Source: Asterionella formosa
Lineage: Eukaryota
Direction of reading: 5' to 3'
Assembly (NCBI GenBank): GCA_002256025.1
Contig: NKIB01000445.1
Location: forward strand, 1-32,539
Length of the DNA stretch: 32,539 nt
The notes under the pieces are model-generated. The model searched no databases, was not told the origin of the DNA, and saw only the letters and a program-made list of their open reading frames with translations. A program made the translations under genes and the position numbers. How positions within the stretch are numbered: the first letter of the stretch is position 1; each line of letters opens with the position of its first letter. Positions 6,205 through 31,510 of this stretch are shown in pieces.

Positions 6205-6290
6205 TTATGTCCATTATTTATTTGGACCCAAGTGCGATTATTGAATAGCTTTAATGTGCTATAAAATTTAATAAATAAATGTTAAAAAAT
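6205..6290 (+). mobile_element. 5'-truncated SINE (3' tail only)
   Basis: tgtccattatttatttggacccaagtgcgattattgaatagctttaatgtgctataa matches the tail of the SINE at 21200-21441 (tgtccaattatttgggcacaagttcgattattgaatagctttaacgtactataa). It ends in an A-rich tract. Confidence 0.75.
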
Positions 6291-6337: not shown

Positions 6338-6347
6338 CAGAATATGC
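6338..6347. repeat. Left target-site duplication CAGAATATGC
   Basis: An identical 10-mer lies at 13809-13818. Each copy is 7 nt outside the inverted-repeat core. Confidence 0.85.
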
Positions 6348-6354
6348 CAGAAAA

Positions 6355-6407
6355 TACCATCCTTGCACAAAAGTGTTTCTAAATGCACAATGGCTTTTTT
6401 GGGAATT
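6355..6407 (+). repeat. Left inverted repeat core of the MULE
   Basis: taccatccttgcacaaaagtgtttctaaatgcacaatggcttttttgggaatt is the reverse complement of 13748-13801, apart from one substitution and homopolymer length differences. Weaker similarity continues inward to ~6450. Confidence 0.9.
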
Positions 6408-6729
6408 CGTGATTATTTTTTTGACTAAATATGTAGCAAATCAAGAATAATTTCTATGGCTGATAGAATATCTTCCAAACTAAAAATTAAATTTTTTTTG
6501 TTTCCTAATGGAATATCGAGAATTTATTTACAATTTTTGTATTATCATCGATAATATGAACTGGATGTCCAAATCGACACAAAATCATGCATAAGAAGGT
6601 ATCCGATTCTAAGAAGATTTCGACATGCCTTGACATCACAATACAATACTACCGGTAGTATTGGTAGTAGACGTCTACGTCTATGTGTACATAATTCACA
6701 TAAAAGGTGTACACCACATCCATCATAGT

Positions 6730-7236
6730 ATGTTATCAAAAATTACTTCCATGATTGCCTCGCAAAAGCCCAATGAGTTGGCTGCTTGGAACAAAGATGA
6801 GAAGCTCTCTCTCGTGAGAAGTGATTTGATTTCAGTATTGAAGGGTAATTATGCTGGAGAAGTTGGCCAGTTTGTATGCTACACAAAGGCCAAAGTGTTG
6901 GTCACTGTGTATGACACCAGGGTTTCCCATAGTACATCTGTTCTCGACCATGCCTGGAAGGCTTCCGAAATCAATAAAATCTTCCCATGGGACAATTCAT
7001 GTCCTTTACCTGAATTTTTTGATTCTATTTTAGAGGAGGAAGCATGGATAAAGATCAAGATTGATCAGATTGCCGCTCAGTTTGTTGCTAGCGGGCTAAA
7101 TCACGAATCGCCCATTCTTCTCAACGTTTTTCGTGATCGAATGTATGCCGCGCAACTTGAGCGCACAGAAGTAAGTGATTGCGTGTTAGCCGCAACATTT
7201 GCTTCAGAAGAGCAGAATAGTAATAATAATTATTAG
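6730..7236 (+). CDS. Transposon-borne small protein (~168 aa) with a KOW/SH3-like motif
   Basis: Intact ORF. SDLISVLKGNYAGEVGQFVCYTKAKVLVTV resembles the KOW consensus (GDxVxVxxGxYxGxxGxV). A full-length decayed paralog at 23278-23783 is conserved at protein level, which supports coding status. Confidence 0.75.
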   Translation: MLSKITSMIASQKPNELAAWNKDEKLSLVRSDLISVLKGNYAGEVGQFVCYTKAKVLVTVYDTRVSHSTSVLDHAWKASEINKIFPWDNSCPLPEFFDSILEEEAWIKIKIDQIAAQFVASGLNHESPILLNVFRDRMYAAQLERTEVSDCVLAATFASEEQNSNNNY

Positions 7237-7539
7237 TACTACTACGAAATTAATTTTTTTAATTTTTTCGTAGTCAAAATATAATATTATATTATTGAAA
7301 CATACGTAGGTACTACGGTAATTTATTTCAATGCACGCATCCGCACCACCCAAATAAAAAATATCTAGCTCGCTACACCCATATGTACAGTATTAATATC
7401 CGCCATCCCGTCAATTGCGTAATCATACATGTATACTATTATATGTTACATCGTCCATCGCCACATTAAAAATTTTACTATTGTTTTACGTAGCAATCGT
7501 GTAGAATGTAATTATTTCTTGATTCCTGGAAACCACCAG

Positions 7540-8953
7540 TCTGACCATTGCAGACGAGCCACCGGTAATCATGGTGATGTGGTCTTGCATGCTGTCACTG
7601 AGCAACCACAAGCAAACAACATATTTTACCAAAAACCGACAAAAGTTTTCTCGAAATGCTAAACTGCCTCCCGACTTGGGAAAAACATCTCAATTCTACC
7701 TGTCCCCCTTCCTGAAGATACACATCGTTTTATGACAAAATGGAAACTTCAAGTGTTGCTTGATCAGCATAGGCACCTCAGTGACCGTAGGTTACTCCGT
7801 TTTTTTCCTGCAAGGCAGGTCACCTCGACGACAATGCGAATGTGGACCTGGATGTTATATTGAAAGTCATGCTCGAAAGATTGGATGCTGTCAATTCATT
7901 TCCTATTATTAAAAGAGGGGAGGCAAGAAGGTTGGATGGCATCATGTATTTTTTGTTACTTCTAAAAACGTGGTTCAAGGTTTTGTCAAGGAGGTTTGGG
8001 CATTGACAAAGTTTCGACCCATTCAACCGCTAGAAAGTTTTCTTGAGAAAGTAGCCGCATCCATGAAGGTGGTGACATCTATTGTTGAAAACGATAAAAT
8101 GATACATATCAAAGGTGTGAGTTCCACCAAATATTTTTCTTGAATTTGTCGTTTCTTCCCGATAGTTTTTTCTTTGGGACGAAGAATTGTTCTGTTTCTG
8201 GACATTGGAAGCAACCTCCCACCAGATTCTGGGCCACGTCAGAACAGATCGCAAGACTAAGGCACCACTTATCAAGAAAACTTTTAAATTCAGTAACCGC
8301 GTTGAGGACTGTTATAAAAAGATGACCGGCAGCGCAATGTCATTGATTGCATCTGGCGGATCCACCAACAGAATGAAGATCTCGGATACTACTTCCCATT
8401 ACAAAATCAGCATGTTTGGCATTTGTTGTCAATGTGCATTCCAGGTGCTGTCCCGCAACCGCTTAATAGTGACGAAACTAATAATGTCAGGATGAGTTTG
8501 CCTCATACCTGTACATTCCTTCACATGTCCCTTGAATCAAATGGTAGGCAAGAGCCACATTTCGATTATCATCACAAAGAATTGGATGTGAATGATGTGG
8601 AAACATGCCTTCCATGGGGATGGGATATGTTGCTAGGAGATGGTGGTTACTCCTTAAATGTTTGGGATGGAGAGTCACTTGAGAACAGGTTTCAGTTAGA
8701 TCGAAAGGGTAAAGTGGAAGAATGTCAACATGCCACGTTACTAAATGTTCCTTTCAAGTACTTTTACCTCCTGCAAGGTTTTATGGTTCATGGAGGTGCC
8801 ATGGACAATGCTCTTACCAATGGAGCTTTGAGACTCCACATGTACTTGATACCTGGTGCCACTTCGGATAGACACTCAGTTGCAATCACAAAACGAGCTG
8901 GGAATGCCATTAAGAACACAAAGGCATGTGGAAGGAAGCGTACCCCTCCTTAG
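7540..8953 (+). pseudogene. Degenerate 2-oxoglutarate/Fe(II) dioxygenase-like gene (PhyH-like double-stranded beta-helix)
   Basis: The C-terminal frame 8423-8953 has QEPHFDY (HxD), MVHGG (distal His) and LRLHMY (2OG-binding Arg) in correct order, with plausible beta-strand spacing. The upstream part is fragmented, so the start is approximate. Confidence 0.7.
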
Positions 8954-9473
8954 TTGGTAATGTTTTTGCTTGATTCTTCTGGAAAAGGTTGGGATTATTC
9001 AGTTTATATATAATTAAAGTGAGTAATAAATAGTTACTACATTAAAATTTGTCAGTTTGGCGCTCTTAATAAGCAAAGGAATTAAACATACTAGCTTGAC
9101 TATACTAGGAGAAAATTAGTGATAGTTACAAGGCTTCATGGGGGCAACAAATCCAATTCTTTCCCTGCCATGCAGTTCAGGAAGCACCAGTGCTACTTGT
9201 CATATTCGTCGATTTCGAGGCAACACAAAGCAATATTTCTTTTGGCAAGGGGTATGAAGGGAAAACCAAACACTGATCCGACATGGTGCTCGAGTTTCAA
9301 GGCGGATGCCTGCCCTTTGAAACGCCAACTTAGTTTACATCCCTCACCAAGTGGGTGGTCAAGGTTCTGAAATATCACCACCTCGGAATATTGAACGACT
9401 TAAATAAAATGGATGATGCTTAATGTTGATGTGATGAGGGCGTACAAATTTACTAATTGCTTGATTGGCTGGG

Positions 9474-9568
9474 ACCTTCTGATGTTCGGCATGGCATGGC
9501 ATCAGCCTCACCGATACCGTACCACCTTCTGATGTTCGGCATGGCATGGCATCAATCTTACCGATACC
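9474..9568. repeat. 50-bp-period tandem duplication
   Basis: accttctgatgttcggcatggcatggcatca...accgatacc at 9474 and 9524. Confidence 0.9.
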
Positions 9569-9784
9569 TTCATTGTTGTCATGTTCAGAGGCCACAAGCT
9601 AGCTTGTAATATTTTTTCCATTATCATATCATATTAGCCCCTGGTTTTCTGTTGTCGTCCTCTGCAGTTTGTGTGTTGATAGATTCATGTAAGGCCATTG
9701 CCATGGGCCCCTCCTCCCTCCTTGCTATGTGCATTTATCTACAGCAAACGCCGCCGCCTCATTGGCTGGTGGCACTGGACGAAA

Positions 9785-9938
9785 TGGAAATAGTACGATG
9801 TGGCGATTCTACGCATTTGGTACATAAAATAATACGGGGGAAATTAAGGGACTTTATCCTGGCTAATCAAAAGAGATAGTAATTCGTCGTCGTGGAAATA
9901 GTACGATGTCTCAATTCTACGCATTTGGTACATAAAAT
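9785..9938. repeat. 46-bp direct repeat, 108-bp period, upstream of the transposase N-half
   Basis: tggaaatagtacgatgt....attctacgcatttggtacataaaat at 9785-9830 and 9893-9938. Confidence 0.9.
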
Positions 9939-10078
9939 CATAGGAAAAAAATAGTAATGGACTTAACCGTAATCAATTGATTACTAGGTAAGTATAGCTA
10001 GATTATTGATCTCAAATATAACGGTAAATTAACTTTTGGAAGGAGAAAACTAGCTATTAACTTCATGACGTCTCAGCA

Positions 10079-11241
10079 ATGTCTAGACGAAAGTTGCTCC
10101 CATCAAAACCTGGCAGTTTGAAATCCACTGGTTTGTATGATTACGATGAAGACAGTAGTGATGATGAAGATGAAAGGTGGTCAGAGGTAAACGAAAAGTA
10201 AATGTTCATCACAAAAAGTCAGCTATCGAAAAAGGAGAAGGTGGTGTAATTTGGATGAAATTGGAGAAGTTGGAAATGTCGAAAATGAGGTCCTGTTTGT
10301 ACTGTACAAAGACCTTACCGTAAATGTATCAGACATCGAAGCAAGTGTTGATGTATGGGTAAACCTTTTTGGCTACAGATGTGAAGAAAGGCGACTTTGA
10401 AGGCATCCACAATGTGTTGGGACAACGCAATTTTGGAGGTGGCGGGTCTCTTTTCTGGTTATCAAAGAATCGCCCATATGTCAGAGGTGATGGCATCCGA
10501 GTAACGAAAAAGAGATGTACTTTTTAACATTCCTGTAAATGCCCATTCGTAATTCTGGAATTGTTCAATACATAAAACCAATTTGACAGATATTGAAATT
10601 GGGAATTTAAACAAAATACTCACAACCATATCAAAGCTCGGCTTTCGCGACATAACAAGCAAAAAACACTACCAGTCAGTGTTGATTACTTCGCTAAGTA
10701 AATTTAACATGAAACCTGCCCGTTATGTTCCTGATGCCAGAGCGAAAGGAGTTCCTGTTAACGAAGCATTGAAGAAGTCTCTCAAACGTCAGCTTACTCG
10801 TCTACGCAATAAGTCAGATGGATTAGTGAATGGCCAAGCGAATAACTGGGGTGGAATCTCTTCTGTACTTAATCTTACAAGAGAGAATTTATTATCAACT
10901 TCACTGAACATTCGATGTTCCTACTTGGCATAGATTGTCGACCAGATGATGACTCTTTGGTGGCTGTGTTACCGACAGAGAATTTGTTGCTGAATGCGTA
11001 CAGACAGAGATTCTGGGTAAATCCAATCTTCCTTGCTGCTGATGCATCATGTAGACTAACGCAAGAGAGAAACGGTGTATTTCCGGTGATCACAACAAAC
11101 TTGGCTCAACAAACGAAAGCGATCGTCTAGGGAGTGATTAGTCATGAACACCACAACGCACAAACATTCATATTTTCGCCAATTAAGTCATCATTAGAAG
11201 AACTGGTTAGATATAGGAAAACTAATAATATTCCAATCTAA
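10079..11241 (+). pseudogene. MULE transposase N-terminal half (WRKY-like zinc finger + first catalytic Asp region)
   Basis: Starts MSRRKLL...YDEDSSDDEDE. RCTF*HSCKCPF...(frameshift)...THNH is a WRKY/FLYWCH-like finger. TENLLLNAYRQRFWVNPIFLAADASCRLTQERNGVFPVITTNLAQQTKAIV*GVISHEHHNAQTFIF follows the MULE first-Asp pattern (Asp at 11041). The frame ends LEELVRYRKTNNIPI* at 11241. Confidence 0.8.
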
Positions 11242-11340
11242 AAACAGCAGGTTAGGTTAGATGTAGGTAAAATAAAATATTCGCAAACAATTGTGACTAT
11301 TATAATTTGTAACTTTCCATAGTATGATTAATAAAAGGTA

Positions 11341-12850
11341 TCAATGAATATCCAAGTTTTCTCCATGTTTTGCATGTTTGTTCCGTCCGGAAATTCTATT
11401 CTTAATACTTGGCTTTGGATGCATTGTCTTGGGAAATGTTGTAATTATCTCCCTGTCAAATGCAAATGCACATGCATATTTACACCATGCATTTGCTAAA
11501 TACGTGTGACAATGGCAACATACAAGGCCTTCATGGCCCATCTTTTTCAAGTTGCTTATGTCAATTGGACCCAGTCCACACTTTCCCTAAGCTCCTAAAA
11601 AGTTTGTGATGGCAATATCATCACTGGCGTTTTTCGATACAATAGGTTTAATAATATGAAACCTGCGTGTGAGAGATACTAGTACATCATCAAATGTGTG
11701 TTTAGCACAACAGTGTTCGGGATTCCGGAGAAGGCGCTTGTATTCATCATGCATCTTGTTTCGCTTTATCATATGCATGACAGCCAGTAGCAGCACTAAT
11801 AGACTACGTCATACCCATGCAATGAAGCCTTTTTCGAGATTGTGAAAGCTGTGATGCTTGACTGTACTGGGACAATGCAACAGCATTGTCAGACTGCATT
11901 GTTTGCATTACGGACATTATGTTTAGGTCAACAAATGATGATGTGGCAATCAACAACGAACCCTCTGCTATCCTGATTGCCTCACACTTGAAATCAAAAG
12001 TAACAGTGAGAAAGGTAGCATCTCCTTTCCGGCTTTTCTCAAGGACCTTATAAATGGACTTGTAGAAATTGATGGAGTCTACTGATGAGTGCAAAGTGGA
12101 GCAAAACTCGCTCTTAGTCACCCTTGGATCAGTCCTCCAAGAACATATAGAACACATTGTGGATAAAATTTGTTGTTAACGGTTGCCTGTGATCGAAGTA
12201 AGATTTGTCTCCACTATTTGTTCCTTCTGAATTATTGTTGTGTGCAGGTAATCCACCTCGACGTAAATTTGAATCATTCAGTTCAACTCTTGAATGAATG
12301 GTTGGAACCCATTGTTTCAACCATGCAGTTGCGACTTTCTTTTCTTTTTAAGTGTTGATCCATTTAAAAATCATGAACTCCCGAAAGAAAGGAACTAAAT
12401 GAATCCAGGGACTTCTCTTATAAGCTTCGAAGTTCTCACCCATTCTTTTCTTGTTTTTGTCATATTTCTTAAACTGCCCTCTATGCTTCTTTACCCAGGC
12501 GTTCCATGCATGATAGGAACACATTCCAAACTTAAATTCAGCAGTTGGCCAAACCTTTTTGACAGCTTTGCGACAGGCTTAAATATTCTTTCATTGTTTG
12601 TGAAGTAGTCAAAGGTAGTTCCGGTTCCCAGCTCCATGGAGTGTCACCAATTGGAATGGGGGAAAAGTCAGCTTGTGCTGGGTGTTGTGCCTGCAGATGA
12701 CAAGGTCGGCGTGAATTCTATGCTTCTGTCCTCAACCATTTCCTTGTCCGAACTGGAGTCACTCTCATCAAAAGAAATTTCTACAGATATATTGTCAGAT
12801 GAATCCTTCTCCAAGGAGTCTTGATCGGAGGAGCTCGAAGAACTAGACAT
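11341..12850 (-). pseudogene. MULE transposase C-terminal half (CxxH, catalytic Glu, SWIM finger) with its own acidic N-terminus
   Basis: Begins MSSSSSSSDQDSLEKDSSD. ACRKAVKKVWPTAEFKFGMCSYHA is the MULE AxxxVFP...CxxH motif (12510-12524). GLPAHNNNSEGTNSGDK is the TNNxxExxN-type motif (Glu ~12226). CHCHTYLANAWCKYACA is SWIM-like (His replaced by Tyr) and is followed by a GRNKHAK tail. Confidence 0.82.
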
Positions 12851-13747
12851 TAACAAAAAGAATTCTTCCCATGCAACAGAAAGTTATCGAAACATGATGT
12901 GTTGCTGGCTTAAGAAGTCGAACGCGATAATGATGTACTACATATCCTTTGTGCATGAATAATCTTAATACAAAGTGATTAGATATGATACACAAAAGAG
13001 CCGCACCACCAGCCAGATTTAGCACGACAACTTGAGTACATCACCTAAGAGTTGCCATCTACCCTTATTACTAATAAGGGAAAAATCTCTTTTGCTGCTT
13101 AGTACTACCAGTTCATATACAAATATATAAACTAGCCTGCTATATCATACGTATGGTCTGCTATATATGCTTGGCATTTGGCATACATGCTTCTAGGTAC
13201 TACCAGTACTTCCATGTGTGTTTGTACTGCTGTCTGTGGTGGTGTGGGGACGATGAGACAGGAAATCCATCTTGACCATGACGAAATTATTGGACTCAAT
13301 ATCTCCACTAATATTGACAAAGAACAATTCCTATCTCGCACGTATATGTAGAATAATATAGACGAAATAATCGCTCAAGAATAGAATTTTTGCAGTAGTA
13401 ATGACAACAAAAATTGAAGTTGTTTCTGGTCGTCGTTTGCTCAGTTTTGAGGATACGAACAAAAAGGAGGAGGCATCGTTGAGTCTGCGGTGATTAGCTT
13501 GATAACTTCTTTTAGATATTATTTTTATCTACTGTACAAATGGATGAGAAAACTTAAGCAATAGAAATCTCAGAGAGAGCACGACAACATCTCGACTATC
13601 ATGTCCATACTAATTGTCGTGGTTCACATTTCTATGGAATCTTGATAAGGTCATTTCGCAGTTTAATATAGACATACATATAGACATTCAACAATACCTG
13701 CTTGTTCTTTTGGAAACTAGATATTTCGCATAGCTAGAGCAAAGAAA

Positions 13748-13801
13748 AATTCCCCCAAAAAGCCATTGTGCATTTAGAAACACTGTTGTGCAAGGATGGT
13801 A
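13748..13801 (-). repeat. Right inverted repeat core of the MULE
   Basis: aattcccccaaaaagccattgtgcatttagaaacactgttgtgcaaggatggta is the reverse complement of 6355-6407. Confidence 0.9.
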
Positions 13802-13808
13802 ATGGACC

Positions 13809-13818
13809 CAGAATATGC
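13809..13818. repeat. Right target-site duplication CAGAATATGC
   Basis: Identical to 6338-6347. Confidence 0.85.
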
Positions 13819-15579
13819 AGAGCCTCTGATATTTCGGTGTCTTGTCGAAGATGATCTAAGAGAAGTTGGATTTGAGCTATTCCCTGATCTGTCCATGTGT
13901 CTGTAAAACCGAACGCTCCCAGCTCGTCCGGAGGTCCAAAAAATAGTAATTGCTTTGTCATTCTGCTAAATCCCGTCTGTGACAGCAGGGTTTGTAAGTA
14001 TGAACTATCAATTTGATGCCATTGATTGATGGTAAAAGTTGAACCGCACAATGGTTATTGACTAGGTGTGTAAAATCTCCCCCTGAGGTCAGATGAATGG
14101 CCACATCCTCAGCTTCATCTTTCCTCAGTGGTCTGTACTCGTCTTTTTCATCATATTTCCAGTCCATTGCCACACAAATTGTTTTCTAGTGCCAGTGCGC
14201 CACCAGTGGTACACAGAAGCACTGCATTTCCCGTGCAATGTCTTGTAAAGATGTCTCTTCTAGTGATAATATCAGCTCTGTATCATCCACATATTTTTCC
14301 ACCGCTCTTTTCTCCTGACTTCTTGTGGTCTTCTTGGGTCTATTAATGTTAGACAAGGAGATCGCTTGGATATTGCGCCCAACAAAATTCGTGTAATTGC
14401 TAACCACAGCATGGCAGATGCTTTGGCACGGAGAACTTTGGACCAGGCATATCTACCAGGCAGATGGACGGCGCTTTACCTCTCTTTCTCCTTTCTGCAT
14501 GGCTCTTCCAATATCTTCCACTTTTCCCAGTAGTATATAACTTTGACTTTTGGCCAGTCCTTCTGTGATTGAAAATATGTGATTCTTTTAAAGAGCTAAT
14601 GATCAGGCCAGTACTCTTTGACCGCTTTGAGATACGTAGATGTTTCGCTGAGTTTGGACGAAATAAATGATCTCTGTTTGGAGGAAACCAATTCTTCTTG
14701 AGACCCTTCGAATAGGCATAGATGTTTAATAAAAATCGACAAACAGGGCTCGATGGCGGTCCACCTGGATCAACCGATAAAATGGAAGTATCCCTCCTCT
14801 GGTGAGGGAATCTTTTAGTAGATGAAGACTGCCAAAGATATAGTCAATGGTTTTGGTGCCTGGCGAGGGTGTGGAAGGATGTAAAGCCGAAATTAAGTCA
14901 AGCATCGAGCACGAGCTTAGAATAGATATTATTTTTTGAGCAGACATGCCAGAATCTTCATTGCATTTGCATCTATAATGAGTGAAATTTGCCTTCTCTG
15001 CCATATTGTTGCTGGGTTTGCATGAAATCTATGATGTCCACTATCAACGGTTTCCTTGCTTGGATTTGTTGATAGATTCCCCCCCTTCGGACATTGTTCT
15101 TATCATGTGATCCTGGAGGTATGCTGTCAGTTCTCCTCTTGATGGCATTGAAACTTGGGAGACTCTGGAAGCCATTATAAATGTAATGACTGTGTTATTT
15201 TTTCCTTTCAAAGTTAGGTAATCCCATCTTCCCATCCCGATCGAGTCCATTGCTTCCTGCATCCTGGTGGTCAGCTCTACCACACCATTTCCCGCCCTAT
15301 GAGGGTTGTGGCGGTGCCCACTGGTTTGTAGCGAGATTCTGATGGCATAGAGCTGGTAGAGAAATCACTCTTTGCTGTTGAAAATGTGCGGGTTGATTGT
15401 TCTATATATTCATTTTTTTGGTCGTCTCTATTCAGTCAATTCGTATTTGTTTCTGCCCAGCCATATAAGCTAAGAACCTGTGAGGAGAGCTTTCGTTTCC
15501 AGATAGAATGTAAAGTCCATTGGGTTGCGTTGCAAAGTCAATATAAACCTCTAATATTTTGAAAGTAAATTCGAAAGGT

Positions 15580-15739
15580 ATTTGGCGTGGATTCCTCCAG
15601 AGGATCGCCCCAAGTGGCTTGGTTGAGCGCTTCAGGAGGTTCGGAGGGCAGGTTTGTAGGCATTTGGCGTGGATTCCTCCAGAGGATCGCCCCAAGTGGC
15701 TTGGTTGAGCACTTCAGTAGGTTCGGAGGGCAGGTTTGT
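15580..15739. repeat. 78-bp tandem duplication (82-bp period) at the 5' edge of the LINE fragment
   Basis: atttggcgtggattcctccagaggatcgccccaagtggcttggttgagc...gttcggagggcaggtttgt at 15580 and 15662, with 2 mismatches. Confidence 0.95.
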
Positions 15740-16145
15740 TTGCCTGAAATCCTGACTCTGTTTGTTTGTATAAACATGATCAACTATTCATATATATAAT
15801 ATGTGTTTTTCATACATATAGTGATGCTATCATCATGCCGCAAAAAATTCTGTGCCAGTTATCAAATCATACCCACGATGATCTTAATAAATATGATATT
15901 TTATTTGCAGACATTGTTTGTTCAAGAGAAGACGACCTTCATCCGACAATAACTCTTGTAGTGCCTTGAAATAACGAGTCTCAAAACATGAAAGTTCGCT
16001 TTCCAGTGACTAATTTGGCAGGCGCCAATGACATTCTTACATGCAACAGGCTTGATGTTCTTGCCGAAGAGATCTCAATGTTTCATCCGTTATGATGTCG
16101 TTATTTTCTTGCAAGAACTTTCTCATTTTTTACTTTATTGAAATA

Positions 16146-16933: not shown

Positions 16934-17150
16934 AGGGGAATGGATTATTGGTTAGCACACCTTCTGTGGTGGGTTCGATTGCTGCATTCTCCACCTGTCG
17001 TTTTTAGATAGTCCCTAGGATTCCGGGGGTGCTGCTGACGAAAAGACAGGTCCTGTTTCACCGTGCAGACAAATGAAACCGGTATTAATTATTTCCATTC
17101 AAAATATGGGCATTAGTGTGATTATTGGATAGCTTTGACATACAAGAAGA
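16934..17150 (+). mobile_element. tRNA-derived SINE, copy A
   Basis: Head aggggaatggattattggttagcacacc...gggttcgatt (A/B-box-like), core attctccacctgtc...tccctagg...gacaggtcc, tail aaaccggta...gattattggatagcttt. Collinear with the copies at 21200-21441 and 31305-31510. Confidence 0.8.
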
Positions 17151-17191
17151 TTTACTTTCATTTAAAGTATACAGTAGTCATGTTCAATCTC

Positions 17192-18965: not shown

Positions 18966-20441
18966 ATGCAACTGTTTGTAAGGAAGAATGCCAGGGACGA
19001 AGAAGGTGGTGTTCCCGTCGGCTTGTTGGACAAGAAACCATCCCGTCTCAACATTTTTGTCCGTAGCAAGAGCAAGGACTACAAGCTGCCACTGGATGAT
19101 GGGCAAGTACCGACGCCAGATGACGACCGTAACGAAGAACCAGAATCATCGACGGCCAAGTCCAGCATGTCTTTCTTTTCCAGAAACAAAAAGGACAAGA
19201 GCCAAAAGAAAATTGCATATGATTCGTTTGGAGGCCAGGATGTGCTAGTACTAGTGACTGAAAAAACAAAAGGAGTTCCGCCTTTGGAGAGTCCAGATGA
19301 TGTAGTTGTTAAAATTGAGGTATGACTGTGATGCCTTGACTTGTGCTCTGCTGCACGCAACTCACTCCAATCCCCAATCCGACTTTTTCTTTAAAATAAT
19401 CTAAAACTGTTTTCTTCTCCCTCCAGGCCAGTACTGTTTCCATCAATGATTGTATCGCGCGTCGAGGGGTTTGTTTCTCGGTCGCGGATTCCTTCGCCCT
19501 CCCTGCTACTCCTGGAATGGATTTGGTCGGAACTATTGTGTCGGTGGGCGCAAACGTCCAAGGCTATAAGGTTGGAGATCGTGTTGCCGCATTGGTCCGA
19601 ACTGGTGGGAACGCTCGCTATTGTGTAGTATCATATCACTCATTGGTGAGCGTCCCACGCAATTTGGATGCGGCGGACGCCGTGGCCATGGTTTCCGTCT
19701 TTATGACAGCATACCAAGCTCTCAATCTAATAGATACTGACATGAAAGGAACAACAGTGCTGGTGACTGGTGGGATGGGACCAGTTGAGCAAGCCTTGAT
19801 TCAACTTTCATTGCGAGCTGGTGCGACGCAAGTGTACTATACGGCGCCGGAACACCACCATATTTACGTAAAATCTGTCTTGGGTTCAATTCCCTTATGC
19901 CCAGATGAGTCGACTGCCTTTGTGCCCTCGTGTCAAGATGGACTTGAATCGTCTGCCCAGGCATTGAAGGAAATTGAAACTTTGTTGGGTGTCGGCATGC
20001 CCACCAGGCTGCACACCGAGTCTAGGCGAGCCCTTGGTGCACCAATCTTTGGTGCTCCAATGTTTGCAATTTGGCCCAAGGAACAATACTTTACTGGCGC
20101 CACTCGCTTTTATGACGTCTGGGAGAGTTTCCAGAGTGATCCTGACAAATTTAAGGTGAGTAAGCTGACGCGTCGATCCTATGAAACGATGCTGGTAAGA
20201 CGCTCACTCAAGCTCCTTTCCCCACATAATTGCACTATAGGCCGACCTGGCAAGTGTTTTTGAATTGTTGAGCAAACGCGAAATCAAGCCTCATATTGCC
20301 AAGCGTATTTCTTTGACTGATGTAGCAGAAGCCCAGACCATTTTGGAAGGTGGTACTCACCTCAGTGGTATTATTGTCTGTTCGCCTTGGCAACGCCGCA
20401 AGGGCAAGTCCAGGGGTGGTCGGGATCAGCGTGAAGTTTGA
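18966..20441 (+). CDS. Medium-chain dehydrogenase/reductase (zinc-independent quinone oxidoreductase-like), 3 exons: 18966-19319, 19427-20155, 20241-20441
   Basis: Spliced frame ...PDDVVVKIE|ASTVSINDCIARRG...PATPGMDLVGTIVSVGANVQGYKVGDRVAALVRTGGNARY...VLVTGGMGPV...KFK|ADLASVFELLSKREIKPHIAKRISLTDVAEAQ...GIIVCSPW. Two GT-AG phase-0 introns at 19320-19426 and 20156-20240. An alternative in-frame ATG lies at 18882. Confidence 0.88.
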
Positions 20442-21199: not shown

Positions 21200-21441
21200 A
21201 ATTAATCTTATAGTACGTTAAAGCTATTCAATAATCGAACTTGTGCCCAAATAATTGGACACAATTAGTACCGATTTTATTTGTATTTATGGTACAATAA
21301 GACATGGGACCTGTCTCCTTGTCAGCCACACAACCCACCTGGACCCCTAGGGACTAGTCTACATAAAAGAACGACAGGTGGAGAATACAGGAATTGAACC
21401 TGCCACCTCATGAGGTGTGCTAAACACTAAGCCATTCCCCT
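21200..21441 (-). mobile_element. tRNA-derived SINE, copy C
   Basis: Reverse complement reads aggggaatggcttagtgtttagcacacc...ggttcaattcc...attctccacctgtcgtt...gtccctagggg...gacaggtccc...aaaatcggtactaattgtgtcc...gattattgaatagcttt. Confidence 0.85.
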
Positions 21442-23110: not shown

Positions 23111-23277
23111 CGCGTGTAAGAACTTGTACTAGATGATTACATATTTTGTTCATCGGTTCTTTGTTGCCATTTCGATTTGATCACTCTACATGCTTTGATG
23201 CATTTCATGTAATGGCACTCCCCTCTCCTCTCTCCATTTGCATAACGGCAATCGAGTTTCTTCTCTTTTACCAAGCC

Positions 23278-23783
23278 ATGTGCGCTCGTCCTAGAGTCCC
23301 TCACGAGCTACCTTCCCGAAGGCAAGACGAAGATCTTAGTCTTGTAACAAATGACATGGTTTCGACACTGAACGGAAATTATGCCGGCGACGTCGGATTG
23401 TTTGTTTGTTACACAAAAGCAAAAGCTTTGTTCAGTTTATACGTTGGAGAACAATCCATTGAAGGTCATGCCCGCTTACCATCCGATTCAAGAAGATTAT
23501 TCCTTTTGATCATAATTCGCCTACTGCGGATAAAGGTTCATATTTTGAATCTGTTCTTCAAGATGAGGTGTAGATCATAGTGAAGATGGACCAGATGGCG
23601 GCATAGTTTGTTGCTTGTGGTCTTAATCATGAGTCTTCCATTCTCATTGACTATTGGAGAGAACGTTCATATGCTGCCGACTTGGAGTACATCACACATC
23701 AGGAAGTAGCTGCATCACTTCTACAGAATCAATCAGGAAATAGCAGCTTTGCTCGAAATGACAAGAATCACACCTTTTATTAG
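23278..23783 (+). pseudogene. Pseudogenised paralog of the KOW-like ORF at 6730-7236
   Basis: DEDLSLVTNDMVSTLNGNYAGDVGLFVCYTKAK, a frameshift near 23480, then FKKIIPFD...YFESVLQDEV*IIVKMDQMAA*FVACGLNHESSILIDYWRERSYAADLE. This aligns end to end with DEKLSLVRSDLISVLKGNYAGEVGQFVCYTKAK...FFDSILEEEAWIKIKIDQIAAQFVASGLNHESPILLNVFRDRMYAAQLE. Confidence 0.9.
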
Positions 23784-26700: not shown

Positions 26701-26821
26701 TTCTCCCATCGATTATTGCATGCTCTATTTCCGATCCTTGATGCATTGTTTATGAATGTCCTGTTTTGTTTGCCCGTTACGCTTCTTGCTTCCGACGTTG
26801 TGATTCGTTTCCATTGTGGAG

Positions 26822-29542
26822 ATGGAGTTGATCCAGGAAGAAGTAGAGATGAGCAATGAAACGAATGAAGCCCCGCATTTTTGTGTGCGTGCATTGCAAG
26901 GAATTGATTCAGAAATGCCGCTTGACGCTATGATTGAATCGCCTCTTGTAGGTACAGACCCACTGACGAGCGAGGTGGCAATCAAAACAGACATTAATAC
27001 GACAATGGAAGCTCCAACTTCTGAGTCTGAGTCAGTTCCTCCTGCGCCTGAAACATCACAAGACGACACCGGAAAGGAGGTCACAACTGCATCGCCGGCT
27101 CCCAGCCAAACAGTCGGTGATATCCCATCAGCTTCAAGCGAAGTGCCCTCCTTGCACGGAACGGAAGCAAGCATGGTGGGAGCCGAAATTGTCTTTTCCA
27201 ACAATTCATTGGATCCTCCCATCGACGTGATGACCAACCTCAAGTGGCTATCGACCAACGGTGTTCGTAAAGTCAGGTTTTGCGGAAACGTGAATAGACT
27301 AGCTATGGAGAAAACGGGAATTTTTGGTCTTAGGACCACGGAAGTTTACAATGCAAGGAAACTGTGCATTTATGAGTACCCTAGCTTGATTCTGATTCTT
27401 CGGGCACCGCAAGATGCGGTTGAACTGCGGACGCTTCTGGATGTTCCGCAAGCGACAGATGTTGGGGCCATCTCCTCGTATTTGGTGGCTGAGACGGTCG
27501 TGGATCCAAAAGCTTGCAAGCTGCGCTTGTCGACACTCACTACGGTCACCTCAATTGAGAATTCGGCTGTCGATCCTCGCCGACGAACTTGCTTTGAGCT
27601 AGTCACGCCTACTGATAGAATTGTGCTTTCATGTATTCCTTCTACTCAAAATCACATGTCCTACATCAACAGCATGGCGTTTCTCGAGACGAAGAAAATG
27701 GAATTGGCGGTTGGAGATGCGCTGTATGATGCTCATTGTCCAGTAGATGGAGAAGTAGATGTCACGCTGAAACACCAGCTGATCCTCGGGACTTTACACT
27801 CATATGTAATCTCCGGAAGCCAGAGCCTCTTGGATCAAGCCATTCGTGCCGCTGCACCTACCGGAAAGCGTGTCCCAAGTCATGTTATCGACTGCACGGA
27901 TGAGAGTGGACGAACGGCTTTACACTATGCATGTGCCCGTCGGAATGCCGCTGCAGTTTCAGCCCTCATTGGGGCAGGATGCGATGCGACGATTTGCTTA
28001 AACGGAGCGGCAACGCCATGCCATTTGAGTGCCGCTATGTTGGATGCGAAGTCGTTGTCGACGATTTTGTCAGCTACATTTCCTAGACGACCAGATCCGA
28101 ATGCTTTGGATGACCATGGGCGAACACCAATGTATGTGGCAATCGTCGAGGGTTGCAAAGTAGACAAATATTGTGATGCAGCGCTTGGTCGTTGTTTGCA
28201 GGCACTCGAAGCCTGGGATGGTCAAATATTAGTGAAGGGTACCGCTAGTCGGCTCCCGCATCCAGTGGTACTCTTGGCATCTGAGTGGCGATGTGGATGT
28301 ATCGCTGCCGTCTTGGGTCATGTACCATTCAGGTATCCATTGCCTGTCCCAGGAATATCCGTCGGAGCGCTATACCATTATCCTATTCATACCGCCATTG
28401 TATCACTCCGACAAAAAATCCTATCAATTACTCCTGGAGACAAGACATTTCGAATCTCGGATCCTGAAAAACAAAATTTGATCCGTACATTGAGTATATT
28501 CCTAGAGCATGGCTTTGAGCCTAATGAACGCATAGAAGGTTCACTACAGTCCTTGAATGATGATGAGAATCTTTCACAGTTTTTTGGATTTTCGCCTATT
28601 CAAATATTGGCAGCGGCTGCTCTCGATCTTGTACGGCTCAAATCAACCAAGATTGGAACTGGTGTCGAAGACAATGTAGCCAATGTAATTGCTGCGTGTG
28701 TAGATAGATTGCTAAGGAGCGGCGCTCGACTAAATTTAGATCCACCGCCCCTGGTTCGGCTATCAAGACCTTCACCTTTGCCACTCATCCCAGACAAGGT
28801 CGGTGCTTTATGCAACATTGATAGAACCACTCTAAAGATTGAGTCCAGCAAGGACATTTTGAATATCTTTGGAGGCGACATCCGTCTCAAGCCGGCCAAG
28901 AAGCAGTGGACAGAAAAGAAAACTGTCACTAGTATCGGCAAGACATTTATTCAGCAAGATATCAAAAAGAAAGAAACTTCAGATTCGGAGGCTCCGGGGG
29001 GAAGTGACGAAAAATCTTGCGCAATTTGTTGGGCCTCGTTTGGCCTGATTGTGCTCCGAAAGCATAGGTGTCGAGTGACACAACGCTATGTCTGCGAAGA
29101 CTGCTCCACTAAACGAATAGGAGAAGGTAAGGAGGAACACCGGCTCAGTGATGGGCAATTTTTGCTAGCTCAGGCAGATGAAGTCAAGCAAAGAGACGAG
29201 AAAATGAAGGATCAAGCCGAACAGGTGCGCGAGCGACAAGCGCAACTGTTAGATCGTCAAATGAAACGTCAAGCACGAAAAGAAGAAGAGAACGCCAAGA
29301 AAGATTCGATATTTGGTGGAATGATGGAACAATTTGGGTTTGGCGAAGAAGAAGACAATGAAATGGATAACGTCAACAGTCTTCAAAACACTCTAGGTCA
29401 GACCAGAGATGCACTGAATGAACGGGGGGACAAGCTGAATTCGCTCAGTGACAAAACCGAGAAACTAATGGAATCAAGCAATGAATTTGAACGAATGGCA
29501 AGGGAACTGGAGAGGTCACAAAAGGGTGGATTTTTCTGGTAG
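26822..29542 (+). CDS. Ankyrin-repeat, FYVE-like and C-terminal soluble R-SNARE (tomosyn/amisyn-type) protein with a probable PH-like N-terminal domain
   Basis: 2.7-kb open frame. Ankyrin repeats DESGRTALHYAC, GATPCHLSA and DDHGRTPMYVAI. FYVE-like CAICWASFGLIVLRKHRCRVTQRYVCEDCS, then a coiled coil. R-SNARE motif TRDALNERGDKLNSLSDKTEKLMESSNEFERMAREL with no TM anchor. First ATG at 26822 (alternative 26849). Confidence 0.92.
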   Translation: MELIQEEVEMSNETNEAPHFCVRALQGIDSEMPLDAMIESPLVGTDPLTSEVAIKTDINTTMEAPTSESESVPPAPETSQDDTGKEVTTASPAPSQTVGDIPSASSEVPSLHGTEASMVGAEIVFSNNSLDPPIDVMTNLKWLSTNGVRKVRFCGNVNRLAMEKTGIFGLRTTEVYNARKLCIYEYPSLILILRAPQDAVELRTLLDVPQATDVGAISSYLVAETVVDPKACKLRLSTLTTVTSIENSAVDPRRRTCFELVTPTDRIVLSCIPSTQNHMSYINSMAFLETKKMELAVGDALYDAHCPVDGEVDVTLKHQLILGTLHSYVISGSQSLLDQAIRAAAPTGKRVPSHVIDCTDESGRTALHYACARRNAAAVSALIGAGCDATICLNGAATPCHLSAAMLDAKSLSTILSATFPRRPDPNALDDHGRTPMYVAIVEGCKVDKYCDAALGRCLQALEAWDGQILVKGTASRLPHPVVLLASEWRCGCIAAVLGHVPFRYPLPVPGISVGALYHYPIHTAIVSLRQKILSITPGDKTFRISDPEKQNLIRTLSIFLEHGFEPNERIEGSLQSLNDDENLSQFFGFSPIQILAAAALDLVRLKSTKIGTGVEDNVANVIAACVDRLLRSGARLNLDPPPLVRLSRPSPLPLIPDKVGALCNIDRTTLKIESSKDILNIFGGDIRLKPAKKQWTEKKTVTSIGKTFIQQDIKKKETSDSEAPGGSDEKSCAICWASFGLIVLRKHRCRVTQRYVCEDCSTKRIGEGKEEHRLSDGQFLLAQADEVKQRDEKMKDQAEQVRERQAQLLDRQMKRQARKEEENAKKDSIFGGMMEQFGFGEEEDNEMDNVNSLQNTLGQTRDALNERGDKLNSLSDKTEKLMESSNEFERMARELERSQKGGFFW

Positions 29543-31304: not shown

Positions 31305-31510
31305 GGGAGAATTGCTTAGTGGCTAGCACACCTTCTGCAGTGGCCGATTTGGTTTCTGAATTCTCCACCTGTCTTTTTCATGTAATCCCTAGGGTTCCAG
31401 GGGGTGCGACTGGCGAAAAGACAGATCCCGTTGTACCGTACAGACGAATAAAACCGGTTCTATTAGTGTCCATTTCATTTGAGCCCGAGTGCAATAATTT
31501 CATATCCTTT
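31305..31510 (+). mobile_element. tRNA-derived SINE, copy D
   Basis: gggagaattgcttagtggctagcacaccttctg...attctccacctgtc...tccctagggttccagggggtgcgactggcgaaaagacagatccc...aaaaccggttctattagtgtcc is collinear with copy A. Confidence 0.82.

Follow-up and report, generated by a model that had tools for sequence, protein, structure and literature searches.

A decayed Mutator-like element in Asterionella formosa from a family that probably encodes its DDE transposase as two convergent genes

Two facing pseudogenes carry complementary parts of a MULE-type transposase

We analysed a window of 32,539 nucleotides (nt), contig NKIB01000445.1 of Asterionella formosa, and all coordinates are given in the numbering of this whole window. 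Between positions 10079 and 12850 it carries two genes that face each other, one for the N-terminal part (N-half) and one for the C-terminal part (C-half) of a DDE transposase. We consider it probable that the locus is a decayed copy of a DNA transposon of the Mutator-like element (MULE) type, whose family encodes its transposase as two proteins from two convergent genes. A first-pass annotation had placed a finger and the first-Asp part of a MULE domain on the plus strand, with a stop at 11241, and the complementary remainder on the minus strand, with its own ATG at 12850, a Ser/acidic leader and a stop at 11341, and these coordinates hold. The features are listed below; positions were read from the sequence unless another source is named.

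10079-11241, plus strand: N-half gene, a pseudogene here (tblastn of the intact N-half protein P0010)
10079, plus strand: start codon ATG of the N-half
about 10130-10180, plus strand: acidic N-terminus of the N-half
about 10339-10572, plus strand: WRKY/FLYWCH-like zinc finger of the N-half (tblastn with P0010)
10972-11007, plus strand: 'TENLLLNAYRQ' helix, PTENLLLNAYRQ
11035-11055, plus strand: first-Asp motif 'AADASCR' of the MULE-type DDE domain
11134-11151, plus strand: 'VISHEH', the SHE motif of the N-half
11239-11241, plus strand: stop codon TAA of the N-half
11242-11340: spacer between the facing stops, 99 bp, 74% A+T
12850-11341, minus strand: C-half gene, a pseudogene here (tblastn of the intact C-half protein P0141)
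12850-12848, minus strand: ATG of the C-half, followed by MSSSSSSSDQDS
12850 to about 12670, minus strand: Ser/acidic leader of the C-half
12645-12622, minus strand: conserved 'DTPWSWEP' of the C-half
12600-12583, minus strand: second-Asp site 'QTMKEY', with the Asp replaced by Glu (relatives have 'QTMTD[YF]T')
12521-12510, minus strand: C(2)H motif 'CSYH'
12239-12222, minus strand: Glu motif 'NNNSEG'
11517-11476, minus strand: SWIM-like finger CHCHTYLANAWCKY, with the last His replaced by Tyr
11343-11341, minus strand: stop codon TGA of the C-half

Both halves match intact relatives far beyond chance, as judged from the tblastn E values. P0010, of 343 amino acids (aa), matched the plus strand at E = 2e-46, with residues 43-120, 121-243 and 215-343 falling on 10339-10572, 10574-10918 and 10849-11238, and P0141, of 498 aa, matched the minus strand at E = 0.0, with residues 58-98, 93-245, 248-352 and 352-496 mapping in three different frames. 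Compared with P0010, the N-half in the window contains four in-frame stops (near 10360, 10525, 10870 and 11128) and at least two frameshifts (near 10573 and 10860-10918), and the His pair of its zinc finger is lost. Compared with P0141, the C-half contains three frameshifts (near 12578/12550, 12117/12106 and 11786/11784). The copy in the window is dead on both strands, and both halves are pseudogenes; Pfam gave no match on the single open reading frame (ORF) pieces of the window. The second catalytic Asp had been reported as impossible to locate because that stretch is frameshifted. Its site can in fact be found at 'QTMKEY', and the frameshift is real and follows directly after it. The description of the stops as facing each other across AT-rich DNA containing AATAAA also stands, with this hexamer at 11271 and 11330 on the plus strand, and the profiles of the N-half and the C-half showed no similarity to each other in hhalign, in agreement with the earlier remark that no motif is duplicated between them.

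Relatives of the N-half end at a conserved C-terminus

Relatives of the N-half were collected by an exhaustive HMMER search with a 122-aa piece around the first Asp (P0008), in which the TAG at 11128 was read as X. This returned 121 relatives at E <= 1e-3 with 29-84% identity, which were then re-aligned locally to the intact P0010, and 101 of them reach its position 325 or beyond. In 88 of these 101 the C-terminus lies no more than 3 residues from that of P0010, which bears out the expectation that homologs of the 'TENLLLNAYRQ' protein would end shortly after the SHE motif. The shared end typically reads '...VE.VV..R....G..I/V-stop', and Ile is the commonest last residue. Five of the 101 end more than 3 residues early and may have been cut by contig ends; another eight extend at least 9 residues past the shared end, and one of them, P0056, runs into junk-like sequence. 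C-half motifs occur in only one of the 121 relatives, the fused protein P0107, which continues for 429 residues. Copies with both halves in one ORF had been named in the first-pass annotation as the observation that would speak against a split lineage, and this single protein is what was found among the N-half relatives.

The first Asp is conserved as D in 107 of 110 aligned rows. Alignments to the Pfam MULE domain (PF10551) were obtained in 13 of 16 N-half or fused relatives and cover about positions 2-62 of the 99 in the profile; in the N-half relatives this alignment always occupies the last ~60 residues, at the C-terminal end. MULE transposases characteristically have a DNA-binding zinc finger of the WRKY-GCM1/FLYWCH type at the N-terminus. 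The zinc finger here keeps its C..C...H..H pattern among relatives, and its profile gave weak matches to WRKY domains in PDB (5w3x_B, E = 0.089; 6j4g_B, E = 0.56), while the Atlas leads to FLYWCH clusters (0.87-0.89). Intact relatives measure about 290-520 aa. P0010, the nearest intact N-half to the window at 62-64% identity, stands for four near-identical intact ORFs, each on separate contigs, and many contigs of 1.27-1.9 kb are taken up almost entirely by an N-half ORF, as with 387 aa on 1269 nt or 402 aa on 1284 nt. A diatom transcriptome, that of Entomoneis sp. (MMETSP), is the source of one cluster. A word-based search for longer forms with a 126-aa piece from the middle of the N-half gave no match.

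Relatives of the C-half are stand-alone proteins with conserved motifs, and the C-half shows protein-level constraint

Relatives of the C-half were found by a word-based search rather than an exhaustive profile search. A 76-aa piece of the minus strand led to P0001, a protein of 399 aa from a cluster of 56 sequences, which begins 'MSSSSNSS...' with the same kind of Ser/acidic leader and continues with FIIQTMTDYTLACRKAVKKIWP, 'CSYH' and 'NNNSEG'. The full-length form in this cluster is P0141, in which the SWIM pattern CxCx9CxH is intact. Further stand-alone relatives were found at 41-54% identity to P0141 (P0160, P0163, P0164, P0165 and P0206). Other intact C-halves are P0160 and P0174 (522 aa), P0176 (546 aa) and P0182 (553 aa), and the full 522-aa forms sit on contigs of 2.0-2.1 kb. 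The start codon and leader proposed for the C-half in the window are thus genuine, as both recur in relatives at 41-54% identity. The N-termini of both proteins (10130-10180 and 12850-12670 in the window; P0010, P0141, P0160 and P0182 among relatives) are acidic, Ser-rich, low-complexity tails, in which the composition is kept and the sequence is not.

Motifs were checked in 13 C-half proteins, 6 of which span the SWIM site. All 13 have their own Met and a leader of 51-102 aa consisting of 29-54% Asp, Glu and Ser, the second-Asp motif 'Q.MTD[YF]T', a C[SA][YF]H 23-47 aa downstream of the second Asp, and the Glu motif 'NNN[SA]E' 121 aa after it. The spacing of 47 aa belongs to the P0163 cluster (P0163, P0179, P0182 and P0183) and is due to an insertion. 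A C-terminal SWIM finger is a feature of many MULEs. CxCx9CxH is present in all 6 proteins that contain the site and in the fused protein P0150, and Pfam SWIM was not detected in the C-halves at E <= 0.01. Two Trp residues, W165 and W182, never vary in an alignment of eight C-halves, and the second of them precedes E210 by 28 aa. In the published MULE/hAT signature (PMC5499845), (C/D)(2)H follows the second D by 15-45 aa and a W precedes the E, and the C-half motifs agree with it in the spacing of C(2)H and in the Trp before the Glu. Taken across the two halves, a DDE triad is present, with catalytic roles assigned by position.

A metagenome scan with P0001 yielded three short loci (L001-L003) that carry the C-half only and do not reach an N-half, and scans of prokaryote genome contigs and viral contigs with the N-half and C-half alignments found no relatives. 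Codon comparisons with these loci were limited to well-aligned segments within residues 99-496 of P0141. Between the window and L002 (232 codons) the differences by codon position were 34/22/96 and the ratio of nonsynonymous to synonymous change (dN/dS) was 0.08; with L001 (388 codons) they were 84/69/168 and dN/dS was 0.15; with L003 (67 codons) they were 6/3/27. Synonymous sites are saturated (proportion of synonymous differences 0.64-0.75), so the dN/dS values are rough, and the third-position excess is plain; a less filtered codon run gave similar values. The C-half thus evolves under purifying selection, and the lineage that led to this dead copy experienced a long period of constraint on the protein.

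A fused relative joins the two halves without overlap

The fused form is represented by P0107 (782 aa) and its cluster mate P0150 (794 aa), both from ENA contigs. By BLASTP, residues 14-350 of P0150 match residues 114-429 of the N-half P0036 (E = 2e-51) and residues 357-788 match residues 60-493 of the C-half P0141 (E = 4e-21), so that the two matches are separated by a gap of 6 residues and do not overlap. D, D and E are all present in this one ORF, and the acidic/Ser leader of the C-half has no counterpart in it. When P0107 was compared with the window by tblastn, residues 260-344 fell on the plus strand and residues 415-533 and 678-767 on the minus strand. The fused proteins share with the family of the window the zinc finger, STDNLLLNGYRQ, D, D, E and the SWIM pattern, but they form one ORF, lack the acidic leader and have no stop after helix alpha1. 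By these alignments, the N-half and the C-half are complementary pieces of a single ancestral protein. In the MULE fold the order is beta1-beta2-beta3-alpha1-beta4..., with the first D on beta1 and the second D after beta4 (PMC5499845). Placed on this order, the split would fall between alpha1 and beta4, and the N-half would correspond to about beta1-beta3 plus alpha1, or ~60% of the MULE catalytic domain.

We considered whether the split might be a gene-calling artefact, with ORF callers cutting ordinary, undivided genes at an intron located where the split is. Most of the relatives are indeed ORF calls from metagenomes or assemblies without gene models. However, the two halves in the window lie on opposite strands, the N-half relatives end on a conserved residue, mostly Ile, instead of at scattered read-through positions, and the C-half has a Met and a leader of 51-102 aa that are absent from the fused protein, while one N-half cluster comes from a transcriptome. 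The common end is not an intron artefact, because Ile codons cannot precede a stop that arises from a GT donor. An artefact of this kind is very improbable.

The convergent layout recurs in a diverged paralog of the same genome

Contigs from three DNA runs (X1, X2 and X3) and from one poly(A) RNA library, prepared from the same sample as X1, were mapped on 8500-15000 at 80% likeness. Thousands of contig pieces from paralogs fell on this region, most densely over the conserved coding parts. Record 12 of X2 (443 nt, about 87% identical) spans 11076-11518 and so contains the end of the N-half, the spacer and the end of the C-half. The facing-gene layout is therefore present in a diverged paralog of this genome too. 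Contigs of X1, X2 and X3 also contain the joints 11316->13114 and 12671->13779, with 6 and 18 filler letters, respectively. The former represents copies without the whole C-half unit and the latter copies that lack everything between the leader and the terminal repeat, and both look like internal-deletion derivatives.

These data bear on the alternative raised in the first-pass annotation, that the arrangement is a one-off internal inversion, or two fragments meeting tail-to-tail, in a single dead copy. The copy is dead on both strands, as this explanation would have it, and joints such as 11316->13114 show that copies without the C-half unit exist. On the other side, the same C-terminus is found in 88 of 101 relatives, the leader architecture recurs at 41-54% identity, a diverged paralog bridges the junction, and the halves tile the fused relative without overlap. 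With ends that are family-wide, dN/dS of 0.08-0.15 and a paralog across the junction, a one-off event fails as an explanation, and we regard it as most improbable. The split itself, suggested earlier as the mark of a lineage with a two-protein active site, is family-wide and convergent in this genome; the assembly of that site from both proteins is the part that would follow from the mechanism proposed below.

Evidence against two joint proteins and the alternative of separate functions

Several observations weigh against a transposase made of two proteins. For the N-half there is no Pfam match at the gathering score, the best reaching 24.1 bits against a cut-off of 27.6, and an intact N-half of the window's own subfamily was not found by exhaustive HMMER, which returned only fragments such as P0009 (112 aa, 84% identity to the window). 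No Pfam, NCBIfam or PDB profile matches the C-half, which is therefore assigned by its motifs, by the fused relative and by Atlas feature leads (0.83-0.86). The N-halves and C-halves from databases are not pairable to one element, and convergence is known from this genome alone. Other paralog contigs diverge before the N-half stop (record 3 of X1 after 11025 and record 5 after 11078). A contig of 1679 nt from the poly(A) RNA library, about 89% identical, covers 11257-12912, the C-half gene alone, but it gives no strand information and may stem from DNA carry-over, and the DNA contigs have breaks near 11257 as well; coverage of the N-half in this library is sparse. A clean boundary of terminal inverted repeats (TIRs) and target-site duplication (TSD) around both genes was not found by self-BLAST and local alignment. 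Finally, a quick, unrooted tree built from 91 first-Asp regions groups the fused P0107 with split forms, including the Entomoneis protein, with a support of 98 in the Shimodaira-Hasegawa-like approximate likelihood ratio test (SH-aLRT). Rooting on the P0107 branch would give a single split and midpoint rooting a later re-fusion, so that re-fusion of a split gene pair in the P0107/P0150 lineage is a possibility.

The position of the fused relative also matters for a different explanation, in which an old inversion gave rise to a non-autonomous lineage whose ORFs were kept separately, the N-half perhaps because it binds DNA as a regulator or repressor, with no joint enzyme and with a transposase of the P0150 type acting in trans. 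A fused relative exists and groups with the split forms, and a regulatory role has been proposed for known stand-alone WRKY-GCM1 proteins of MULE origin (PMC1702500). Against this, the first Asp is kept in 107 of 110 sequences and the second Asp, C(2)H and Glu in 13 of 13, over deep divergence, dN/dS of the C-half is 0.08-0.15, and fusion is seen in only 1 of 121 relatives. An unused catalytic half should lose its catalytic residues, and their retention counts against separate functions. We therefore regard this explanation as unlikely, though it deserves to be taken seriously, and favor two proteins acting together. The evidence for the split at the family level is strong, and the joint function of the two proteins is a prediction.

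Element ends and other features of the window

The following features lie outside the two genes.

6355-6407, plus strand: left arm of a 54-nt TIR-like inverted pair, 3.7 kb upstream of the N-half ATG (self-BLAST, local alignment)
13748-13801, minus strand: right arm of the 54-nt TIR-like inverted pair (self-BLAST, local alignment)
6338-6347 and 13809-13818: 10-bp direct repeat CAGAATATGC, each copy 7 nt outside an inverted-repeat arm
13194-13577, minus strand: conserved non-coding block upstream of the C-half gene, 86% identical to L003 3-395 over 377 nt
9785-9834 and 9893-9942, plus strand: two 50-nt direct repeats, 92% identical, 140-290 bp upstream of the N-half ATG

The arms of the inverted pair match at 52 of 54 positions, and a 32-nt pattern of the pair occurs in the window only at 6355-6386 (plus strand) and 13770-13801 (minus strand), with 0 occurrences expected. 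The right arm coincides with the end of repeated DNA, and unique contigs begin at 13765. MULEs are characterised by long TIRs and a TSD of 8-11 bp. The 9-mers directly beside the two arms differ, which leaves no adjacent TSD. The 10-bp direct repeat is possibly the TSD of an element at 6348-13808, which would include 3.7 kb to the left of the N-half; among 20,000 random pairs of 40-mers drawn from the window, 31 have a 10-mer in common. Between 7000-10200 and 12800-16000, the search for inverted repeats gave only chance matches of 13-19 nt. The 20-nt core of the two direct repeats at 9785-9942 occurs in the window only at these two sites.

The block at 13194-13577 differs from L003 at 17/19/17 positions and shows no 3-base periodicity, and it is far better kept than the synonymous sites of the adjoining C-half gene, which differ at 64-75%. 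The summed contig depth in X1 is 126,000-178,000 over 13057-13707 and 37,100 over 13708-13924, and falls to about 850-1,200 in the flank beyond 13925; the copy number of the stretch upstream of the C-half gene (13057-13924) is far above that of the genes. It is probably a terminal region common to many short derivatives, and the block within it is a candidate cis-acting subterminal or promoter region that may be shared with non-autonomous derivatives.

The remainder of the window contains other repeats and genes. Open frames at 6634-7236 and 23137-23580, both on the plus strand, share '...NYAG[ED]VG.FVCYTKAK...' and have no Pfam match, and the DNA at 7014-7118 and 23540-23644 matches at 70%, which marks another repeated family; the copy at 6634-7236 sits between the left inverted-repeat arm and the N-half gene. 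A repeat of ~200 bp is present in three copies (16934-17152, 21204-21441 and 31306-31499) that are 72-78% identical, one of them inverted, and a 51-nt piece of it is also found at 6218-6268. An 82-bp unit is duplicated in tandem at 15576-15739 with 96% identity. On the plus strand, the open frame at 26804-29542 (912 aa) combines ankyrin repeats and a FYVE finger with a synaptobrevin-like C-terminus and is probably a host gene, and 19400-20263 encodes an alcohol-dehydrogenase GroES-like domain.

A proposed two-protein transposase and its comparison with known systems

If the two genes act together, the N-half would give protein A, with an acidic N-terminus, the WRKY/FLYWCH-like finger and the first Asp, ending at the conserved C-terminus. 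The C-half would give protein B, of about 480-550 aa, starting at its own Met with an acidic/Ser leader of 50-100 aa and carrying the second Asp, C(2)H, the Trp, the Glu and a C-terminal SWIM-like finger. The finger of protein A would bind the element ends in the same way as the FLYWCH finger of Muta1. The two proteins would then associate so that the strands and helix of the first-Asp part pack against the part with the second Asp and the Glu, and one RNase H-like active site would be assembled in trans from both proteins. Such a complex could perform cut-and-paste transposition in the style of MULE and hAT elements. Muta1 of Aedes aegypti, in which the DDE residues and a Trp are required and hairpins form on the flanking DNA as in hAT, serves as the mechanistic model for the proposed enzyme, and differs from it in being a single polypeptide of 504 aa (PMC5499845). 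The split may have originated when the 3' part was inverted in an ancestor with one gene and, as in MuDR, with promoters at both ends. After the inversion, each half would have been transcribed inward from its own end, and the C-half would have gained a new start and leader.

Two genes within one MULE have been described before. Maize MuDR carries the convergent genes mudrA and mudrB with a short region between them, and its promoters and transcription starts lie in the TIRs (PMC3440606). The likeness to the locus in the window is the presence of two convergent genes in a MULE, but MURA contains the DDE domain in full, with MURB as an unrelated accessory protein, whereas the family studied here divides the catalytic domain. 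In Yarrowia Mutyl (mutA/mutB), also a MULE, a transposase function (the WRKY-GCM1 domain) is located in a second, antisense ORF; the cut lies between the DNA-binding and catalytic domains and the catalytic domain is whole. In the family of the window, by contrast, the zinc finger and the first Asp remain in one protein, and it is the RNase H-like core that is cut. Barley Abermu carries additional ORFs next to a transposase that is complete and not split. PIF/Harbinger elements, with two ORFs, and Tn7, with TnsA/TnsB, need two element-encoded proteins, but each catalytic domain is whole in one polypeptide. To our knowledge, eukaryotic cut-and-paste transposases are treated as single polypeptides with a whole DDE/RNase H-like core, and full-text literature searches found no description of a split DDE transposase. 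The split catalytic domain is the point of difference from MULE transposases of one polypeptide.

Among diatoms, a MULE survey lists in its table elements of one ORF with SWIM (PMC6446971). A mobile MULE of Phaeodactylum tricornutum has been described with a length of 3,707 bp, TIRs of about 200 bp, a 9-bp TSD and two ORFs, given as 'MULE + SWIM' and as a diatom-specific 'UBR-type zinc-finger E3 ligase' (bioRxiv 10.1101/2023.01.02.522487). Compared by description only, its size and two-ORF content would fit an element made of an N-half and a C-half, and it could share the architecture of the family in the window; that report does not describe a split catalytic domain.

Implications

The chances appear evenly balanced that a widespread clade of protist MULEs, diatom hosts included, has a heteromeric transposase of the RNase H fold encoded by convergent genes in one element, with the first Asp supplied by a zinc-finger subunit and the second Asp and the Glu by a SWIM subunit, and this clade may include the only diatom DNA transposon that has been seen moving in real time. 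The N-halves resemble orphan zinc-finger proteins and the C-halves escape Pfam, NCBIfam and PDB profiles, so that elements of this kind have probably been missed or misnamed. If two proteins do form one active site, the DDE/RNase H-like core would tolerate a natural break between alpha1 and beta4, and lineages as distant as about 30% identity would have kept this division of the core. A simple route from one gene to two would then exist in the internal inversion of an element with a promoter at each end, and the family would offer a ready-made, two-component and obligately heteromeric transposase for mechanism studies and tool building.

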